Shown here in pieces: positions 2,457-24,240 of a DNA stretch of 64,000 bases (position 1 is its first letter; each line of letters begins with the position of its first letter). This DNA comes from Colwellia psychrerythraea. Lineage in GTDB: Bacteria; Pseudomonadota; Gammaproteobacteria; Enterobacterales; Alteromonadaceae. The position numbers and the translations under genes were made by a program. The notes beneath the pieces are model-generated. The model worked only from the letters and a program-made list of their open reading frames with translations. It was not told the origin of the DNA and did no database searches. The DNA is taken from contig MAAF01000024.1 of NCBI GenBank assembly GCA_002163005.1, forward strand, positions 1,933 through 65,932. Reading direction: 5' to 3'.

Positions 2457-3641
2457 TTACAACATTTCTAATGCGATTGCAGTCGCTTCACCGCCACCAA
2501 TACAAAGAGAAGCAACACCTTTTGATAAACCTTTATTCTTTAATGCATGAATAAGCGTTACCATAATGCGCGCTCCACTTGCGCCTAATGGGTGACCTAG
2601 GGCACAAGCACCACCATTAACATTGACTTTATTGATATCTAAATCCATTTCTTTAACAGCAAGCATAGTGACCATAGCAAACGCTTCATTAATTTCAAAT
2701 AAATCAACATCTCTTGCAGTCCAACCGGCTTTATCTAGTAATTTATTCATCGCACCTACTGGTGCTACGGTAAATTCTGCCGGTGCTTGTGCATGTGTAG
2801 CATGAGCGACAACTTTACAAAGTGGTGATAAACCACGTTTTTCAGCTTCTGATAATTTCATCATCACAAGCGCTGCTGCGCCGTCTGAGATTGAGCTTGA
2901 ATTAGCCGCGGTAATAGTGCCTTCTTTTTTAAATGCTGCACGCAATGATGGGATCTTATCTGGACGAGCATTGCCTGGCTGTTCATCTGTATCAATAATA
3001 GTTTCTTTACGTCGATTAACTACGGTTACAGCTGCAATTTCATTTTTAAAAGCGCCAGATTCAATCGCTTGATTTGCACGACTCAATGAACGGATAGCAA
3101 ATTCATCCATTGCTTCACGCGTAAAGCTAGCTTCATCGGCAGTATCTTGAGCAAAACACCCCATAGAAATTCCGTCATACGCATTTTCTAAGCCGTCTTG
3201 CATCATATGATCTATGACTTGACCATGCCCCATGCGTAAACCGGTTCTGACTTTTGGTAAAATATAAGGCGCATTACTCATGCTCTCCATGCCGCCAGCA
3301 ATGGCAACATCGATAGAGCCCGCAAGTAATGCGTCATGCGCTTGCATAGCAGCTTTCATGCCTGAACCACATACTTTATTGATTGTGGTACACACCGTAG
3401 ATAAAGATAAGTCAGCAGCAATCGCTGCTTGTCTTGCTGGTGCTTGCTTTAAACCTGCAGGTAAAACACAGCCCATAATGAGTTCATCAACTTGATCATT
3501 GGCTAAATTAGCTTGGGTTATAGCGGCTTTGATTGCGGTAGCACCTAATTCAGGCGTAGTTACCGGCGACAAACAACCGCCAAAGCCACCCATAGGGGTT
3601 CTTACAGCGGAAACAATAACAATAGGATCTGATAATGACAT
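2457..3641 (-). CDS. Acetyl-CoA C-acyltransferase (thiolase)
   Basis: 394 aa; NKVCGSG active-site Cys, GHPLGASG, CIGGG motifs. Confidence 0.93.
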   Translation of the reverse strand: MSLSDPIVIVSAVRTPMGGFGGCLSPVTTPELGATAIKAAITQANLANDQVDELIMGCVLPAGLKQAPARQAAIAADLSLSTVCTTINKVCGSGMKAAMQAHDALLAGSIDVAIAGGMESMSNAPYILPKVRTGLRMGHGQVIDHMMQDGLENAYDGISMGCFAQDTADEASFTREAMDEFAIRSLSRANQAIESGAFKNEIAAVTVVNRRKETIIDTDEQPGNARPDKIPSLRAAFKKEGTITAANSSSISDGAAALVMMKLSEAEKRGLSPLCKVVAHATHAQAPAEFTVAPVGAMNKLLDKAGWTARDVDLFEINEAFAMVTMLAVKEMDLDINKVNVNGGACALGHPLGASGARIMVTLIHALKNKGLSKGVASLCIGGGEATAIALEML

Positions 3642-8422: not shown

Positions 8423-10462
8423 ATGTTCAGTAAAATTTTAATTGCCAACCGTGGTGAAATTGCCTGCCGCATTATTAAAACAGCCAAGAAAATGGGTGTA
8501 TTAACCGTTGCCGTTTATTCAGATGCCGATAAAGATGCTTTGCATGTTCATATGGCCGATGAAGCCGTTTACATTGGCCCTTCGCCATCACGCGAAAGCT
8601 ATTTGTTAGGTGATAAAGTCATCGCTGCCGCCAAGCTGACAGGAGCACAAGCGATTCATCCTGGTTATGGCTTTTTATCTGAAAATGCTGGTTTTTGTCG
8701 TAACTGTGCAGCTGAGAACATCACCTTTATCGGCCCTCCTGTTGGCGCCATTGAAGCGATGGGTTCAAAATCTGCCGCTAAAAACATTATGGAAAAAGCC
8801 GACGTGCCATTAGTGCCTGGTTATCATGGTGATGATCAGTCACGTGATATCATCAAAAAAGCGGCTGACGACATGGGCTATCCAGTGCTATTAAAAGCCA
8901 CAGCAGGTGGTGGTGGTAAAGGCATGCGCCAAGTTTGGAGCGAAGCAGAATTCGATGAAGGTTTAGCCGCTGCAAAACGTGAAGCGATGTCATCATTTGG
9001 TGATGACACTATGTTAGTTGAAAAATATCTAACGCAGCCTCGCCATGTTGAGATCCAAGTGTTTTGTGATAATCACAAAAATGCTGTTTATTTATTTGAA
9101 CGTGATTGCTCAGTACAGCGTCGCCATCAAAAAGTAATTGAAGAAGCCCCTGCTTTTAGCATGAGCGAAGAATTACGCGCTCAAATGGGCGAATCTGCAA
9201 TAAAATCTGCCCAGGCGATAGGCTACCAAGGTGCTGGTACTGTTGAGTTTTTACTTGATATCGACGGCTCTTTCTATTTTATGGAAATGAACACCCGCTT
9301 ACAAGTTGAACACCCTGTTACTGAAATGATCAGTGGACAAGATTTAGTAGAATGGCAGTTACGCGTAGCCGCTGGTGAATTACTGCCTAAAACACAACAA
9401 CAACTTGTACTTAACGGTCATGCTTTTGAAGCGCGTATTTATGCAGAAGATGCTAATAACGACTTTTTACCCGCAACAGGAAAGTTGACTCTATTAAAAA
9501 CACCTATTGAGAGCGAACATGTTCGTATAGATACCGGTGTTCGTCAAGGCGATGACGTTAGTGTGTATTATGATCCCATGATTGCTAAATTGATTGTCTG
9601 GGATGAAAATCGTGAAAAGGCACTGCAGCGCTTAGCAAAAGCATTGAGTGAATACCGTATTAATGGTGTAACGACTAATATTGATTTTCTTTATAATTTA
9701 GCCACATCAGCTCCTTTTAAAGCCGCTGATATTGATACTGGTTTTATTGAAAAAAATCATGACCTGATTTTTCATAACGATGAAAAACCACTAGTTAATG
9801 AGTTACCTATTGCAGCGTTATTCCTTGTTCTATCTAAAGAAAGCAAGGCAAAACAGCAAGCGCAACAAAGTAATGACCCACATTCGCCTTGGTATAACGC
9901 GAATGCATGGCGCCTAAATGAAGCTAATTTACATACGCTAATACTCGCGCACAATGATACCGAGCACACGGTAACAGTTGAACAAAAACGTCAGGGTAAT
10001 GATGCCTATTATTCCATTAATGTAAATGGTGAAAAGTTTGATTGCCAAGGCGAAATATTAACTACGCCCCATAATAATGACACTATCATAGCGACTATTA
10101 ACGGACATCGTAGCCAAACTACCTTTAATCACTTTGAAAATAACATAAATCTATATAGGACTAATGGCGTATTTAACTTTACTCATATTCTGCCAGACTG
10201 TGGTCAGCATAACGAAGATGATAATCATGGTGGTTTAGCAGCACCAATGAATGGCACCATGGTGAGTGTTTTGGTTAAATCTGGCGAACAGGTGAGTAAA
10301 GACCAACCATTATTGATCATGGAAGCGATGAAAATGGAACATACTATCAAAGCGCCAAGCGACGGTACTATTGATGAGATATTTTTCCAAGTAGGTGACA
10401 TGGTAGATGGTGGTGCTGAGTTATTAGCGTTCACTGAACAAGAAAATAGCAGTGAAGATTAG
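8423..10462 (+). CDS. liuD: Methylcrotonoyl-CoA carboxylase, biotin carboxylase/biotin-carrier (alpha) subunit
   Basis: 679 aa; [26 protein letters not shown] biotinylation motif. Confidence 0.93.
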
Positions 10463-10467
10463 GAGCA

Positions 10468-11397
10468 ATGATGTTATCAAACAAATTACCACAACAGGTT
10501 AAAGTTGTTGAAGTTGGTCCTAGAGATGGTCTGCAAAATGAAGCGACTCCCATTAGTGCTAACGATAAAATTCAGCTGATAGAAAAACTCAGCGCTGCTG
10601 GTGTTAGTTATATTGAAAGTGGCAGTTTTGTTTCACCTAAATGGGTGCCACAAATGGCAACCTCTACTGAAGTATTTGAAAAACTCAATCGCAATCAGAA
10701 GGTAACCTATGCCGCATTAACGCCTAATATGCGTGGTTTTGAAGCTGCAATGGCAGTCAACGCCGATGAGGTCGCTATTTTTGGCGCTGCCTCTGAAAGC
10801 TTTAGCCAAAAAAACATAAACTGCTCTATTGAAGAGAGCCTTGAGCGCTTTGCGCCTATTATGGAAGCGGCTAAAAAAGCTAATATCAAAGTACGTGGTT
10901 ATGTTTCTTGTGTATTAGGTTGTCCCTATGAAGGTGATGTAGCTCCTGAGCAAGTTGCTTTAGTCGCGGAAAAACTCTTTGCCATGGGCTGTTACGAAAT
11001 TTCATTAGGTGACACCGTAGGTGTTGGTAACCCAGACAGCGTAACAAAAATGATACAAGCCGTTAGTGCCCGTGTACCAACAGATAAACTAGCGGTTCAC
11101 TTTCATGATACCTATGGGCAAGCGTTAACCAATATTTACGCTGCATTACAACTGGGTGTCAAGGTAGTCGATAGTGCTATTGCTGGTTTAGGCGGTTGTC
11201 CTTATGCTAAAGGAGCTTCAGGTAATGTAGCTACTGAAGATGTTGTTTATATGCTTAATGGTTTAGGTATAACGACAGGCATCAATTTCAAGAAGTTATT
11301 ACAGGCAGGTTGGTTTATTAGCGATAAGTTAGGTAAAACACCTATATCTAAAGTATCAAATGCTTATTTAGCACAAGAAAAAGTTTCAGAAGAATAG
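10468..11397 (+). CDS. liuE: Hydroxymethylglutaryl-CoA lyase
   Basis: 309 aa; [24 protein letters not shown]. Confidence 0.93.
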
Positions 11398-13004: not shown

Positions 13005-13114
13005 ATTTACACGTTTAGTCTAGTATTATTTCCATTTCCTCTCCCATTTTATGTTGCCCTCTAGCCCATTTCACTTGCACTTTGGTAACAATTACGTGAT
13101 ACTAATTTTGACAA

Positions 13115-13212
13115 AGAAAAGGCAAAGCACGCGAAAACGTGTCACGCAAAACCACCGGTCTAAGGGTAAAGTTTAATTATTTCTACTTTATCTATGACAG
13201 CGGAGTCACCTC
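13115..13212 (+). ncRNA. Cyclic di-GMP-I (GEMM) riboswitch
   Basis: GGCAAA-gcacg-cGAAAa-cgtgt-cACGCAAAAccaCCG-GTC-TAA-GGGTAAAGT...ACTTTATC-tat-GAC-AG-CGGagtcACC: P2 with GAAA loop, conserved GCAAA junctions, TAA receptor and P3 pairings all visible; in the leader of the 13272 CDS. Confidence 0.85.
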
Positions 13213-13271
13213 GTTAATAGGTACATCCCGTGGTTTTTTCTTTTATTAACTCCATTATTAAGGTTTATAAA

Positions 13272-13631
13272 ATGAAAAAATTATTAATAGCTTCAACCAT
13301 CACAGCTTTAACATTAACCTCTGCACTAACGACACCAAAGGCACAAGCTGCTGACATTGCAACAAGTATATGTGAGTACGTGGCAGCCGATGACAAGAAA
13401 CGCATGCGTTCATTTTTAAAGACTAATAAACTTAAAATTCGTCGTATTTTCGACGGTATTCAGTGTAATGGTAAGAACTTATTAGAGTTTGCATCAACCT
13501 CTGGCTCCGTAAAAACTGGCTCTTTGATGATTTCAAAATTACCAAAGAAAGTAGTTTCTGCGAACCTAGCGTTTCTTCAAACTGGATCGCAACCATTGAT
13601 AGACGCTGCCAACGCTCGCGTTAGCAGTTAA
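13272..13631 (+). CDS. Small secreted protein, DUF3718-like
   Basis: Signal peptide MKKLLIASTITALTLTSALTTPKAQA then ADIATSICEYV...IQCNGKNLLEFA with two Cys; ATG at 13272 preferred over the track's GTG at 13230. Confidence 0.75.
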   Translation: MKKLLIASTITALTLTSALTTPKAQAADIATSICEYVAADDKKRMRSFLKTNKLKIRRIFDGIQCNGKNLLEFASTSGSVKTGSLMISKLPKKVVSANLAFLQTGSQPLIDAANARVSS

Positions 13632-17547: not shown

Positions 17548-18465
17548 ATGCAAACACTGAACGTACTTGATAATAGGTTTTCACCATTCAATACCTATAG
17601 CACATTAAGCACAGATGCACTTGTTGCTGAAACTTTTACGGATACTGTTTTTGATAAACGTCAAATGTTAGCACTGATGACGCAGTTACAAACTACACTT
17701 GATATTGATGAACTATTAAATATTTTTGCAATAGAAGTTACACGGTATATTGATTTTTCGGGCCTCTACTTTAAAAGCCTGAATTTGAATACTGTGCTTC
17801 CCGGCAGCAGAAAGGCTAAGAAAGAGCAGCGTTTCGAGTTAAAAGTTGATGATAATTTTATAGGTACACTCACCTATGGTATTAATAGCCCTATCAGCTT
17901 AACTAACTTTAAAGTTTTAGAACAACTTCACCAATGCCTATTACACCCGATTAAAAATGCCATTGCTTATCATGCAGCGATGCAACTTGCTATGCAAGAC
18001 GGTTTAACGGGCCTAGGTAATCGTCGATATTTTGACGAGCAATTAAAACGATCAATGCATAACGCTAACCGACATCATAGTTTGGTTGGCTTAGTTTTAG
18101 GTGATTTAAATAAATTCAAAGCGATTAACGATACTTATGGTCACATTGCTGGAGATAATGTATTACAAGAGTTTGCTAATGTTTTACGTCTATGTACCCG
18201 AGACTCAGATAGCCTATTTAGGTTTGGCGGAGATGAATTTGCAATAATTGTCGAAAATGCTAACGATTCCGCTTTAACCATCATTGAAAACAGAATAAAC
18301 CTGTCGCTGGCTAATAATCTACAATTAAATAAATACCAACTTGGTTGTAGTATAGGCTCAACGTTTATGAACAGAGCAGATAATGAATTAAGCTTTTTTG
18401 AGCGAGCAGACGAAATACTTTACCGCAGAAAGATGAAAGTATCTACGCACTTAAGTGTTGTCTAA
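17548..18465 (+). CDS. Diguanylate cyclase (GGDEF)
   Basis: 305 aa; DGLTGLGNRR, DLNKFKAINDTYGH, RDSD I-site five residues before intact GGDEF; no obvious TM segment. Confidence 0.9.
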   Translation: MQTLNVLDNRFSPFNTYSTLSTDALVAETFTDTVFDKRQMLALMTQLQTTLDIDELLNIFAIEVTRYIDFSGLYFKSLNLNTVLPGSRKAKKEQRFELKVDDNFIGTLTYGINSPISLTNFKVLEQLHQCLLHPIKNAIAYHAAMQLAMQDGLTGLGNRRYFDEQLKRSMHNANRHHSLVGLVLGDLNKFKAINDTYGHIAGDNVLQEFANVLRLCTRDSDSLFRFGGDEFAIIVENANDSALTIIENRINLSLANNLQLNKYQLGCSIGSTFMNRADNELSFFERADEILYRRKMKVSTHLSVV

Positions 18466-20986: not shown

Positions 20987-21634
20987 TCAAACTAGAGACA
21001 ATGGCTCAATTTTAGTAATTGGCGCGCCAACACCCGCAGCAACATAAGGAATAACTCGCTCAATAACGCCGGCTATATCTAGCTTATTGTCAAAGTCGTT
21101 TTGAGCAATATCAATCAAAGCTTCACTTGAGGACATGGTAAAAACAATAGTACCCATCGTAAAATGTAAACGCCAAAATATTTCTTCTGCGCTTAATTCT
21201 GGGTAAGCTATGTTAACTGCTTTGGTAAAATTAGTAAAAACATCAGGGTATTGCGTTGTTAGAAACCACCGTAAAAAGCCCTGGCTGTCGGTATAGCCAC
21301 GTCCTAATAACTGCAAAAAAGTACTGGTACCATTTTCTTTAAACTCATTAAGGTGTAAAAGTGGCCCTATAAAAGCAGAGAACACCTCATGTAAGGTTGG
21401 TTTAAGCTCTGCTTGGCAAATGAGTGAAAGCGCTGACTCCAATCGAGGAGATAACTCATCCATGTAGCGTGACATAACCGCTTTAATTAACTCTTTTTTC
21501 GAGCCAAAATGATAGTTTACGGCCGCTAAGTTGACATTAGCTTGGCTAGTAATTTCTCTTAAGGAAGTACCATTAAAGCCTTTATTGGCAAAAAGTACAT
21601 CGGCGGCATCTAATATTTTATTTTTGGTACTCAT
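20987..21634 (-). CDS. psrA: TetR-family regulator, PsrA-like
   Basis: 215 aa; TetR HTH with VNLAAVNYHFGSK and FWRLHF...GT motif typical of PsrA; matching palindrome in its own leader. Confidence 0.75.
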   Translation of the reverse strand: MSTKNKILDAADVLFANKGFNGTSLREITSQANVNLAAVNYHFGSKKELIKAVMSRYMDELSPRLESALSLICQAELKPTLHEVFSAFIGPLLHLNEFKENGTSTFLQLLGRGYTDSQGFLRWFLTTQYPDVFTNFTKAVNIAYPELSAEEIFWRLHFTMGTIVFTMSSSEALIDIAQNDFDNKLDIAGVIERVIPYVAAGVGAPITKIEPLSLV

Positions 21635-21699
21635 ACTTCAACTTCTAACTGTTTGCTGTTTTAATTATTTAACGATTTAGCATATAAACCAAACAACTA

Positions 21700-21719
21700 T
21701 TTTAAACATCCGTTTAAAA
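21700..21719. promoter_or_regulatory. PsrA-type operator
   Basis: Perfect inverted repeat TTTTAAAC-ATCC-GTTTAAAA, fitting the AAAC-N2-4-GTTT PsrA motif, 65 bp upstream of the TetR start. Confidence 0.65.
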
Positions 21720-21781
21720 TAGCGTATTCTTTGTAAACAGGTCAAGCTTTTAACAATCACTAAACCAGATTTTTTAAAAAT

Positions 21782-22018
21782 GTATTATACACCAACTCTA
21801 TTACAAATCGTTACGCTATCTATACAGTAAAACACAGGCTGAACATTTATTATTAACTCAGTTTCTAGCAAGCAGTGATTTTAACAACTCTCTGCTCTTA
21901 TTAACTCCCTTATATATCATTGTTTTTGTTTATTATTGTTTTTATATCTCAACCCAGTTTCATGTTGTAGTTTGCTCATTCATTTTGAATGAGCTTTTTT
22001 TTGCCCAAAATTCGGGCT
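21782..22018 (+). ncRNA. Tandem non-coding unit, copy 1 (candidate sRNA with own upstream region and terminator)
   Basis: 260-bp period duplicate; U-rich tract at 21912-21942; terminator GCTCATTC-ATTTT-GAATGAGC-T8 at 21974-22002. The duplication is certain; the sRNA call is inference. Confidence 0.55.
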
Positions 22019-22041
22019 GTTGGACCAAGTTTATTCAAAAG

Positions 22042-22277
22042 GTATTGTATACCAACTCTATTACAAATCGTTACGCTATCTATACAGTAAAATACGGGCT
22101 GAGCATTTATTATTAACTCAGTTTCTAACAAGCAGTGATTTAAAATACTATCTGCTTCTATTGACTCCCCCATATATCATTGTTTTTGTTTATTATTGTT
22201 TTATATATCAACCCTGTTTCATGTTGTAGTTTGCTCATTCATTTTGAATGAGCTTTTTTTTGTTCAAAATTCAAGCT
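22042..22277 (+). ncRNA. Tandem non-coding unit, copy 2
   Basis: 16 differences including one indel over 212 nt versus copy 1 by hand alignment; identical terminator ending at 22261. Confidence 0.55.
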
Positions 22278-22368
22278 ACTTTTATCCTAAGTAACTATTT
22301 TACTTATAAACTGTGTATCACCCCACCAATTTTATATACTAGCTTCACCTAACAACTGCACTTTAATA

Positions 22369-24240
22369 ATGATAATAAAAATGAAACATATTACGAAAAC
22401 ATTTAAATTTACAGGTCTTGCTTTAGTTATTGCCGCTTCTTTAACTGCGTGTACTCAAGAATCAAGTCAACAAGCCTCAGAAAATAAAGCGGTAGAAATT
22501 AGTAAACAAGCAGCATTAACAGCAACAGATGCACAACAATTCTTGGATAATGTTGCAAAAGAAATGGTGACATTAAACTTAGAAGGTTCACGTGCTGCTT
22601 GGATTTACGCTAATTTCATAACTGAGGATACGGCTTCATTAGCCGCTGAAGCCGATCAGAATTCGACCGATGCTGGTGTTAGATTCGCTATGCAAGCAGC
22701 GACTTTTGATAAGGTAGACGTTAATGCGATACAGCGACGTCAGCTAAATATATTAAAACAAAGCTTGGTTATGCCCGCTCCACAAGATTCAAATAAGTCA
22801 GCTGAGCTTGCAACTATTGGCGCTAAACTTGGCAGCATTTACGGTAAAGGTAGCTATACCACTAAAGCAGGTGAAAAGCTTAGCTTAGGCGATATGACAG
22901 CTAAAATGGCCACCTCTCGTGATTATGATGAGCTACTTGAAATGTGGTCTGGCTGGCGTGAAATTAGCCCTGAAATGAAACCACTTTATACCCGTCAAGC
23001 TGAGCTTGCCAACGAAGGTGCTAAAGGCCTAGGTTATCAAGATTTAGGTGCAATGTGGCGTTCAAATTATGATATGCCTGCTGATGATTTTGCTAAAGAG
23101 CTTGATCGTTTATGGGGACAAGTTAAGCCGTTATATGATGACTTACATTGTTATGTAAGAAGTGAGTTAGGTGAAACTTACGGTACTGATAAAGTAGCCC
23201 AAGACAAACCTATTCCTGCACATTTACTCGGTAATATGTGGGCTCAATCTTGGGGTAACATCTATGATTTAGTCGCTCCAGAAGATGCCGATCCCGGTTA
23301 TGATGTAACGAAGCAATTAGCTGCACATAACTACGATGAAATTAAAATGGTTAAAGGCGCTGAGAAGTTCTTCACGTCATTGGGCTTTGATGCTTTACCA
23401 GAGACTTTTTATAGCCGTTCATTATTTACTAAACCTGCCGATAGAGACGTAACTTGTCACGCCAGCGCATGGGACCTTGATGCCAAAGATGATATTCGCA
23501 TCAAGATGTGTATTCAAAAAACAGGTGAAGAATTTAACGTTATTCACCATGAATTAGGGCACAACTTCTATCAACGTGCTTACAAAGACCAACCAGTATA
23601 TTTCCAAAACAGTGCTAATGACGGTTTCCATGAAGCAATTGGCGATACTATTGCATTGTCAGTTACGCCGAAATACTTAAAAGAAATAGGCCTAATTAAG
23701 ACCATTCCTGATGAGTCAAAGGATATTGGCTTATTAATGAAAAAAGCTCTTGATAAAATCGCTTTCATTCCATTTGGTTTGATGGTTGATCAATGGCGTT
23801 GGAAAGTTTACTCAGGTGAGATTACCCCTGAAAACTACAACACGTCATGGTGGGAATTACGTGAGAAGTATCAAGGTGTAGCAGCGCCTATTGACCGCGA
23901 TGTTAATGCATTCGACCCTGGTGCTAAGTATCATGTACCCGCAGGTGTTCCTTATAGCCGTTATTTCTTAGCACACATTCAGCAATTTGAATTTCATCGT
24001 GCGTTGTGTGAAATTTCAGGGAATACTGATCCAATTCACCGCTGTTCAATCTATAACTCAAAAGACGCCGGTACTGCACTTAATACCATGTTAGAAATGG
24101 GTTCAAGCCAGCCATGGCAACAAGCTTATAAAGTCATTACCGGTAATGAACAAATGGATGCTACCGCTATTTTAGATTACTTTGCACCATTACATGTATG
24201 GCTTAAGAACAAAAATCAAGGTAAACAGTGTGGCTTTTAA
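22369..24240 (+). CDS. M2-family peptidyl-dipeptidase (ACE-like), probable lipoprotein
   Basis: 623 aa; HHELGH zinc motif, FHEAIG third ligand, AHLLGNMWAQ; LTAC lipobox; ATG at 22381 is an alternative start. Confidence 0.88.
   Translation: MIIKMKHITKTFKFTGLALVIAASLTACTQESSQQASENKAVEISKQAALTATDAQQFLDNVAKEMVTLNLEGSRAAWIYANFITEDTASLAAEADQNSTDAGVRFAMQAATFDKVDVNAIQRRQLNILKQSLVMPAPQDSNKSAELATIGAKLGSIYGKGSYTTKAGEKLSLGDMTAKMATSRDYDELLEMWSGWREISPEMKPLYTRQAELANEGAKGLGYQDLGAMWRSNYDMPADDFAKELDRLWGQVKPLYDDLHCYVRSELGETYGTDKVAQDKPIPAHLLGNMWAQSWGNIYDLVAPEDADPGYDVTKQLAAHNYDEIKMVKGAEKFFTSLGFDALPETFYSRSLFTKPADRDVTCHASAWDLDAKDDIRIKMCIQKTGEEFNVIHHELGHNFYQRAYKDQPVYFQNSANDGFHEAIGDTIALSVTPKYLKEIGLIKTIPDESKDIGLLMKKALDKIAFIPFGLMVDQWRWKVYSGEITPENYNTSWWELREKYQGVAAPIDRDVNAFDPGAKYHVPAGVPYSRYFLAHIQQFEFHRALCEISGNTDPIHRCSIYNSKDAGTALNTMLEMGSSQPWQQAYKVITGNEQMDATAILDYFAPLHVWLKNKNQGKQCGF

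Follow-up and report, generated by a model that had tools for sequence, protein, structure and literature searches.

Tandemly duplicated candidate small RNA genes beside psrA in Colwellia psychrerythraea: a possible divergent counterpart of VrrA

Between a psrA-like regulator gene and an M2 peptidase gene, the genome of Colwellia psychrerythraea carries the same short sequence twice in a row, and the question raised by this locus is what the two copies encode. We addressed it in a window of 64,000 nucleotides (64 kb; assembly GCA_002163005.1, contig MAAF01000024.1, positions 1,933 to 65,932 of the forward strand), to which coordinates without a locus name refer. We propose, at a probability of about 0.6, that the copies are tandemly duplicated genes for trans-acting, base-pairing small RNAs (sRNAs) of about 167 nt, forming a divergent Colwelliaceae counterpart of VrrA (Rfam RF01456). 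The proposal builds on an RNA family found at a fixed genomic position, on the conservation of its promoters and terminators, on covariation in the terminator, on the lack of a conserved open reading frame (ORF) and on similarity to VrrA.

Results

Two direct copies run from a promoter-like sequence to a terminator

Repeat search and alignment of the window resolved two direct copies with a period of 260/259 bp and 89-92% identity, copy A at 21764-22018 (+; repeat search families D1/D2) and copy B at 22024-22277 (+). A first-pass annotation, made from the letters of the sequence, had counted 16 differences in 212 positions at a 260-bp period, and the recount gave exactly this number: 15 substitutions, plus a single 1-nt indel at 21939, separate 21791-22002 from 22051-22261. 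The three identical blocks that it had described were reproduced as well. Direct search matched 21792-21832 to 22052-22092, and in the alignment position 21791 is also equal, giving the full upstream block of 42 nt; a U/G-rich tract of 31 nt at 21912-21942 recurs at 22172-22202 (two matches in the window versus 0.00 expected); and the final 46 nt of the copies, hairpin included, are identical in the alignment. The differences had been described as clustered in the loop of an AGCAG/CTGCT stem. Only four of the 16 lie in this loop, and three others (21903, 21910 and 21911) flank a conserved CUCCC motif, which refines the earlier description.

At the end of each copy a terminator scan found the hairpin and T8 run that had been noted there: terminator-like sites composed of GCTCATTCATTTTGAATGAGC and T8 lie at 21974-21994 and 22233-22253, compared with a mean of 0.5 for shuffled sequence. 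The predicted transcripts measure 167 nt for unit A (21836-22002, +), the 3' end being the T8 run, and 166 nt for unit B (22096-22261, +), with the terminator at 22233-22253 followed by U8.

The units belong to an RNA family of Colwelliaceae

We fetched 80 psrA loci from Colwelliaceae genomes, a set to which C. psychrerythraea 34H does not belong. Three rounds of nhmmer recovered 66 copies in 45 of these loci, each upstream of psrA on the opposite strand. The family members are 107-173 nt long and stand in arrays of one to four tandem copies, with four in C. psychrerythraea ND2E. In most loci the M2 gene lies beyond the array as seen from psrA, and the psrA-M2 gap grows stepwise with copy number. 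A metagenome scan with the promoter motif described below returned 32 contigs, of which 31 have a family member directly 3' of the motif and 30 have psrA divergently upstream; these contigs likewise carry one to four copies. Locus L073, from a metagenome-assembled genome, shows no M2 match past its two-copy array, where a tRNA gene (57 bits) is found at 3092-3165 (+); the array is thus not always paired with M2.

A covariance model (model R1) was built from 13 short-form Colwelliaceae members, none of them from the window. It matched the window at 21835-22002 (72.8 bits, E = 1.5e-9) and at 22095-22261 (69.4 bits, E = 5.6e-9), E-values that rest on a shortened calibration, and nowhere else in the 64 kb. 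These limits indicate that the boundaries given by the first-pass annotation to two non-coding promoter-to-terminator units of ~166-167 nt were well chosen. No ORF or reading frame is shared across the family alignment, in which indels are of arbitrary length; protein coding was therefore rejected, in line with the earlier view that the copies have no ORF in common.

Most paralogues group with others from their own genome, a pattern that points towards repeated duplication or gene conversion, and copy number varies between close species. The window and Colwellia demingiae ACAM 459 have PsrA proteins with 100% identity, and unit A shares 97.6% with the corresponding ACAM 459 unit, while unit B is unusually diverged, with 91% identity to its nearest relative. 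The two copies of C. demingiae ACAM 459 are 97% alike (unit B, 22096-22261, was compared with L001 3311-3477). Unit A is 96-98% identical to the ACAM 459 copies, unit B only 89-91% to any of the others. It appears that the copies were homogenised in one lineage, while in the other one of them was left to diverge.

A covarying terminator and an anti-Shine-Dalgarno block predicted to be exposed

The intrinsic terminator of unit A (21974-22002, +) consists of a 9-bp stem, a 3-nt loop and U8. Over 49 family members, 96.7% of the alignment cells in this stem are paired and five of eight pairs have changed on both sides, a level reached by 0 of 500 shuffles. Directly before it lies GUUUCAUGUUGUAG (21957-21970, +), represented by UUUCAUGUUGU with at most two substitutions in 43 of the 49 members. 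Trans-acting sRNAs of the Hfq-dependent class have a U/A-rich single strand ahead of an intrinsic terminator with a long U-tail, and the 9-bp stem and U8 with GUUUCAUGUUGUAG upstream fit this design; GUUUCAUGUUGUAG is possibly an Hfq-contact region. RNAalifold, applied to 25 close relatives, predicted the terminator only. The same 25 relatives provide moderate support for a central hairpin, AGCAG.GA / UC.CUGCU (21871-21896, +; 21871-21878 pairs with 21889-21896): 76% of the cells of its seven pairs are paired and five pairs have changed on both sides. Distant family members also fold a stable hairpin at this position. A candidate 5' helix, in which 21839-21843 would pair with 21857-21861, is weak at 69% paired cells, and single-sequence folds of the two units show no unusual stability (z = -1.5 and -1.9).

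Between the central hairpin and the terminator lies the candidate seed UUAUUAACUCCCUUAUAU (21898-21915, +), an anti-Shine-Dalgarno (anti-SD) sequence that contains UUAUUAACUCCC at 21898-21909. Its C-rich block UUAACUCCC is present with at most two substitutions in 37 of 49 members, and the mean unpaired probability of this block across the family is 0.80, compared with 0.51 for the rest of the RNA; for the seed block of the window units the values are 0.88 (unit A) and 0.98 (unit B). Unit B carries the seed variant CUAUUGACUCCCCCAUAU at 22158-22175, where the block reads CUAUUGACUCCC, and beside the seed block the window copies differ (ACUCCCUUAUA versus ACUCCCCCAUA). A 5' block, UUAUUAACUCAGUUUCU (21850-21866, +; UAUUAU...CAGUUUC), is kept in the family too, with (near-)invariant U/A positions at 21848-21853 and a conserved CAGUUUC. 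Its first 10 nt, UUAUUAACUC, occur twice in unit A, in the 5' arm (21850-21859) and at the start of the seed block (21898-21907), which may point to a duplication inside the unit or to another pairing site.

The U/G-rich tract (21912-21942, +) had been taken for the seed by the first-pass annotation, which also expected conservation in relatives. Promoter, body and terminator are indeed conserved, in the 45 loci of the 80, but the tract is a clade-specific insertion: it occurs in 17 of 49 aligned members, all of them Colwellia sensu stricto, and is absent from every member of 107-154 nt. The candidate seed of the family is the CUCCC block. Within Colwellia sensu stricto the tract is nearly invariant, and this strong conservation makes a clade-specific role possible, be it in a second pairing interaction or in binding Hfq.

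Each copy carries a conserved promoter-like sequence

The predicted promoter of unit A (21800-21828, +) comprises a -35 element ATTACA (21800-21805), a 17-nt spacer and a -10 element TACAGT (21823-21828). Direct search found the identical sequence before unit B (22060-22088, +). A direct repeat, ATTAC-N5-GTTAC (21800-21814, +), overlaps the -35 element and the spacer. In 52 copies, column conservation begins abruptly at 21800, with none upstream, and amounts to 45-52 of 52 for ATTACAAA, 39-52 for GTTAC and 51-52 for ACAGT; the spacer has 17 nt in all 43 copies that show the pattern among 49 examined. The ACAGT is followed by an A-rich stretch, an invariant C21835 and, at 21836, a purine, which is A in unit A and G in unit B. 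Lying 8 nt past the -10 element, 21836 is the likely start of the predicted transcript of unit A. ATTACA-17-nACAGT would thus act as a σ70-like promoter of each copy, and the two xTTAC pentamers, 10 bp apart, probably bind a regulator.

Elsewhere in the window, ATTACAAAnnRTTAC occurs at chance level only, and since the long promoter motif is confined to the psrA locus in metagenomes, no regulon can be deduced from it. Several candidate factors were rejected: LexA, for which CTG/CAG is wrongly spaced and the palindrome lacks conservation; PsrA, as the promoter motif is not palindromic; and σ54, σ28 and σE, whose motifs are absent. A tentative OmpR- or CpxR-like assignment of the direct repeat was likewise dropped. 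Similar promoters (e.g. AATTACAAACTGTTAAACATTCTATACAGTAGAAAA) stand without a recognisable sRNA body or terminator at L027 ~3700-3660 (-), L051 ~3705-3665 (-) and L035 ~3709 (-), and may be decaying copies.

Probable relation of the family to VrrA

The gene vrrA has been described for vibrios, and the literature consulted treats it as strictly σE-dependent (promoter GGAACTT, ~16 nt, TCNAA). In Vibrio, VrrA associates with Hfq and represses ompA, ompT, pal and lpp at the ribosome-binding site; it pairs with the ribosome-binding region of ompA and blocks 30S binding, and of its two conserved pairing regions the second acts on pal and lpp. In V. cholerae, vc1741 and vc1743 flank vrrA, which shares its start site with vc1743, a gene reached by weak read-through (PMC2628432); the regulator vc1741 forms an operon with fadE (PMC7148568). 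An R1 element, CRCUGCUUUU, is common to VrrA, MicV and RybB (PMC6694218).

Using protein homologue searches, we obtained the corresponding Vibrionaceae loci of Vibrio sp. TH_r3 (L081), Enterovibrio norvegicus (L082) and one more. The Rfam VrrA model matches divergently upstream of psrA-fadE in TH_r3 (42.4 bits) and E. norvegicus (37.4 bits), both below the Rfam gathering score of 50 bits, and the psrA-divergent position of the window units is shared by VrrA in these two loci. A few bases before its terminator, the Rfam VrrA consensus holds UUAUUAACUCCUAUA, which shares an 11-nt identity with UUAUUAACUCCCUUAUAU of unit A. The conserved VrrA pairing block UUAUUAACUCCU, which would correspond to region R2 of Peschek et al. 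2019, is present as UUAUUAACUCCC in unit A and as CUAUUGACUCCC in unit B and is predicted to be unpaired in both. Local alignment of a C. echini copy (L017_1) with TH_r3 VrrA gave z = 8.9 (0 of 500 shuffles), and another member (L015_1) aligns with the same RNA from its 5' end as far as the seed block, which is most of its length. In searches of the three Vibrionaceae loci, a profile of four members matched TH_r3 vrrA (E = 0.0037), and a short-form profile had vrrA or a vrrA-like gene as its top match in each of the loci (E 0.6-1.4). Model R1 scored the TH_r3 vrrA over its full length (43.2 bits, E ~3e-5 by a rough calibration).

The units resemble VrrA in further respects. Both lie divergently upstream of a psrA-type TetR regulator gene (vc1741 in V. 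cholerae), are of similar size (140 nt for VrrA, 107-173 nt for the Colwelliaceae family), end in an intrinsic terminator, expose a UUAUUAACUCC block a short way before it with a CxCUGCU element just upstream of this block, and are followed by a co-oriented gene that could be reached by read-through. They differ from VrrA by their ATTACA-17-nACAGT promoter with its direct repeat, by a single-stranded arm and short hairpin in place of the long 5' stem-loop, by tandem amplification to one to four copies and, in Colwellia sensu stricto, by the ~30-nt U/G-rich insertion between seed and terminator.

Several results weigh against this relationship, or against an sRNA function of the units. The Rfam VrrA model does not recognise the units: it gave no match at gathering score over the whole window, and none at E up to 10 on 21000-23000 of the window or on eight short-form loci. 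A whole-family profile misses vrrA in the Vibrionaceae loci, and a single-sequence nhmmer search of VrrA against 705 kb reached only E = 2. Model R1 has a high noise floor, as it gave a 30-bit match on an unrelated terminator. The element comparable to R1, CUCUGCUCUU in unit A (21890-21899, +; 8/10 match to CRCUGCUUUU) and AUCUGCUUCU in unit B (7/10), is largely contained in the central hairpin's 3' strand and is mostly base-paired, which leaves its equivalence uncertain. A σE-type promoter (GAAC[TA]-N15-18-TC-N-[AT]-A or a looser form) was found in none of 49 upstream regions, whereas the vrrA promoters of L081 and L082 (TGAACTG...GTCATAA and TGAACTA...GTCAGAG) match this pattern, as do those of the type 2 units described below. 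Finally, the region is covered only by Logan metatranscriptome contigs of relatives, which lack strand information and true ends, and some of which extend across the promoter or the spacer that separates copies; the contig ends, which fall at repeat boundaries (e.g. 21810 and 21988), are uninformative on transcript ends, and the runs X33, X37 and X38 have the appearance of genomic DNA, their depth being even and doubling on the repeat.

Taking both sides together, we consider common descent of the Colwelliaceae family and VrrA probable on the sequence comparisons. The first-pass annotation had assigned the units to no named family, and Rfam scans of the window and 19 related loci indeed leave both them and the type 2 units unnamed, but the position of the two window units, their seed block and a profile search connect them with VrrA. 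Should the RNA bodies be homologous, the lack of a σE promoter implies that the regulatory input has been replaced.

Flanking genes and other sRNA-like units of the psrA gap

The psrA-like gene (20987-21634, -; PF00440 and PF17939, the PsrA-type C-terminal domain) encodes a TetR regulator and is divergent from the array, whose units start 166 nt and more upstream of it on the opposite strand. Outside the repeated unit, a palindrome read from the sequence, TTTAAACATCCGTTTAAAA (21700-21718), overlaps a minus-strand promoter-like site for psrA at 21745-21716. Palindromes resembling AAAC-N4-GTTT adjoin psrA in all inspected loci, including those of Vibrio, Aeromonas, Moritella and Catenovulum, and TTTAAACATCCGTTTAAAA is probably an autoregulatory operator bound by PsrA. 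Downstream of the units and co-oriented with them, the gene for the M2 (ACE-like) peptidase (22369-24240, +; PF01401, Peptidase_M2, 743 bits) is possibly reached by terminator read-through.

In 27 loci (among L019-L066 and L080) the gap contains a second kind of short sRNA-like unit (type 2; e.g. L027 3870-3774, -), which is absent from the window. Its promoter is σE-like (TTGAACTA-N16-TCAAA), its body of ~65 nt ends in ...CUUCCUGA or CUCCCUG, and its terminator reads CUCAGUGGCCUGAUCUGUCAAUC...CUGAG followed by U8. The psrA-M2 gap often holds a type 2 unit where the Colwelliaceae sRNA family is missing; where both are present, the type 2 unit always lies between psrA and the family members. 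The psrA-upstream gap of Enterovibrio, V. stylophorae and Aeromonas contains sRNAs with a σE promoter and the 5' end GCCACUGC(U/A)..., which resembles the seed of RybB/MicV; such units lie at L082 ~3290-3200, L083 ~3345-3265 and 3172-3094, and L087 ~2400-2295 (all -). The second V. stylophorae unit combines CCACUGCUUU with AACUCCUAAAUUGUGU. The psrA gap appears to be a recurrent home of envelope sRNAs.

Elsewhere in the window, a c-di-GMP-I riboswitch (13111-13213, +; 58.7 bits, cut-off 35) stands directly upstream of a DUF3718 gene (13230-13631), and a gene for a GGDEF protein (17548-18465) is located near it.

Alternative readings of the units

The first-pass annotation had compared the units to GcvB and proposed that 21912-21942 pairs with C/A-rich, AACAAUAAUAA-type leaders of mRNAs for amino-acid or peptide uptake or catabolism. 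Like GcvB, the units have a U/G-rich stretch in an sRNA-like predicted transcript with a U-tail, and the tract is identical in both copies as well as nearly invariant in its clade. Moreover, 21912-21949 can pair with 10440-10475 (+), across the start codon and the Shine-Dalgarno sequence of the gene for HMG-CoA lyase (liu operon; the gene for MCCase alpha lies at 8423-10462). The predicted duplex has -22.6 kcal/mol with unit A and -22.2 with unit B, compared with a background of -10.0 ± 3.0 and -20.3 for the best of 400 random windows. We treat this pairing as a lead to a candidate target: it is rich in G-U pairs, lies in A/T-rich sequence and is one outlier among ~200 segment-gene tests, the only one found segment by segment, while duplex prediction with the whole RNA against 49 start regions gave meaningless structures with long interior loops. 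Differences in the tract among the paralogues of L002 could mean different targets. The comparison with GcvB nevertheless did not hold, in that the Rfam GcvB model has no match and gcvA is not adjacent; part of the tract can also pair internally in the minimum-energy fold. Of 49 members, 32, including all of 107-154 nt, are without the tract, which identifies it as a late insertion and not as the defining seed of the family. We consider it unlikely that the units are sRNAs of this kind.

That the units are instead cis-acting leaders, in which a promoter and an attenuating terminator set M2 expression by regulated read-through and the short RNAs are by-products, seems to us quite improbable. 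Their orientation would suit it, as they are co-oriented with M2 and, in most of the 80 genomes, lie immediately upstream, and no strong σ70-like promoter was found in 22262-22368. Metatranscriptome contigs join the 3' half of the sRNA to the M2-proximal spacer, and are compatible with a possible read-through into M2, in parallel to V. cholerae, where vc1743 has its start in common with vrrA and is reached by weak read-through (PMC2628432). This explanation does not account for the many genomes in which psrA and M2 are adjacent without a unit (a 214-nt gap in Parashewanella, 199-400 nt in several Colwelliaceae), for copy numbers of one to four or for arrays such as that of L073, which is followed by a tRNA gene and shows no M2 match. 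A 9-bp stem with U8 is, moreover, a strong terminator, and the most conserved internal element, the anti-SD block, suits pairing in trans. Roles in cis and in trans are not mutually exclusive. Very improbable, finally, is a decaying, non-functional duplication or a pair of genes for tiny peptides. Spurious ORFs of 30-69 aa overlap the units and an ATG-TTG-TAG is conserved just before the terminator, but no Shine-Dalgarno sequence accompanies this ATG and some members have lost it, and the members differ by 1-nt and variable-length indels and share no ORF; different Colwelliaceae genera and 31 metagenome contigs keep promoter, seed block and terminator, and the terminator covaries.

Discussion

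The reading that we favour is that the units are duplicated genes for VrrA-related, base-pairing sRNAs. From the features described above we infer how they would be transcribed, regulated, bound by Hfq and directed to their targets. Each copy would be transcribed from its own σ70-like promoter, where a regulator would bind the 10-bp-period direct repeat xTTAC-N5-xTTAC, and transcription would end at the copy's own intrinsic terminator. The predicted RNA would consist of a single-stranded 5' arm, a variable central hairpin, the exposed anti-SD sequence UUAUUAACUCCC and a U-rich 3' module (GUUUCAUGUUGUAG, hairpin and U8) of the kind bound by Hfq. By analogy with VrrA, the exposed block would pair with the ribosome-binding sites of target mRNAs and block translation initiation, with envelope proteins such as OmpA, Pal or Lpp as putative targets. 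Duplication would raise the dosage, and because the copies differ beside the seed, their target preference may split.

The proposed logic, an sRNA that would occlude the ribosome-binding sites of envelope mRNAs, is also that of MicA, RybB and MicV. In contrast to these, the seed of the units is internal and not 5'-terminal and there is no σE promoter; a MicA match on the window reaches only 18.8 bits (E = 8.2). Tandem sRNA paralogues are found as OmrA/OmrB in E. coli, PrrF1/PrrF2 in Pseudomonas and LhrC1-5 in Listeria. Every paralogue there comes with a promoter and a terminator of its own, conservation lies at the ends and variation in the middle, and the benefit is thought to be dosage or a spread of targets. 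The window units share with them the adjacent duplication of sRNA genes that each have a promoter and a terminator, as well as conserved ends and a variable middle. They have neither a sequence relationship nor an Rfam match to these systems, whose regulators (OmpR, Fur) differ, and they stand apart by a copy number that changes among close species and by paralogues that mostly group within a genome.

A more far-reaching scenario is possible but doubtful. Here an envelope sRNA of the VrrA lineage would have been cut off from σE in Colwelliaceae and have come under another regulator, possibly a response regulator of the OmpR/PhoB type, acting through xTTAC-N5-xTTAC. In Colwellia sensu stricto it would later have been amplified to as many as four paralogues with diverging seeds and have gained a second, U/G-rich pairing region that would widen its control beyond envelope proteins to amino-acid and peptide catabolism, for instance the liu operon, or M2 by way of read-through.

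What is new here is best filed as VrrA-like sRNA genes outside Vibrionaceae, in tandem, with a non-σE promoter and a clade-specific U/G insertion. If the units are related to VrrA, the VrrA family reaches into Alteromonadales, and a seed can outlast its promoter, the regulatory input being rewired while the pairing output is kept. The gap upstream of psrA, with its VrrA genes, RybB/MicV-like genes, type 2 σE units and arrays of one to four copies, would then be a long-lived site at which envelope sRNAs arise, duplicate and are replaced, and a convenient natural system for following the birth of sRNA genes, their duplication and the appearance of new seeds. For Colwellia, a model heterotroph of the cold ocean and the deep sea, the analysis adds an RNA family that had not been annotated, a specialist contribution that introduces no new principle.

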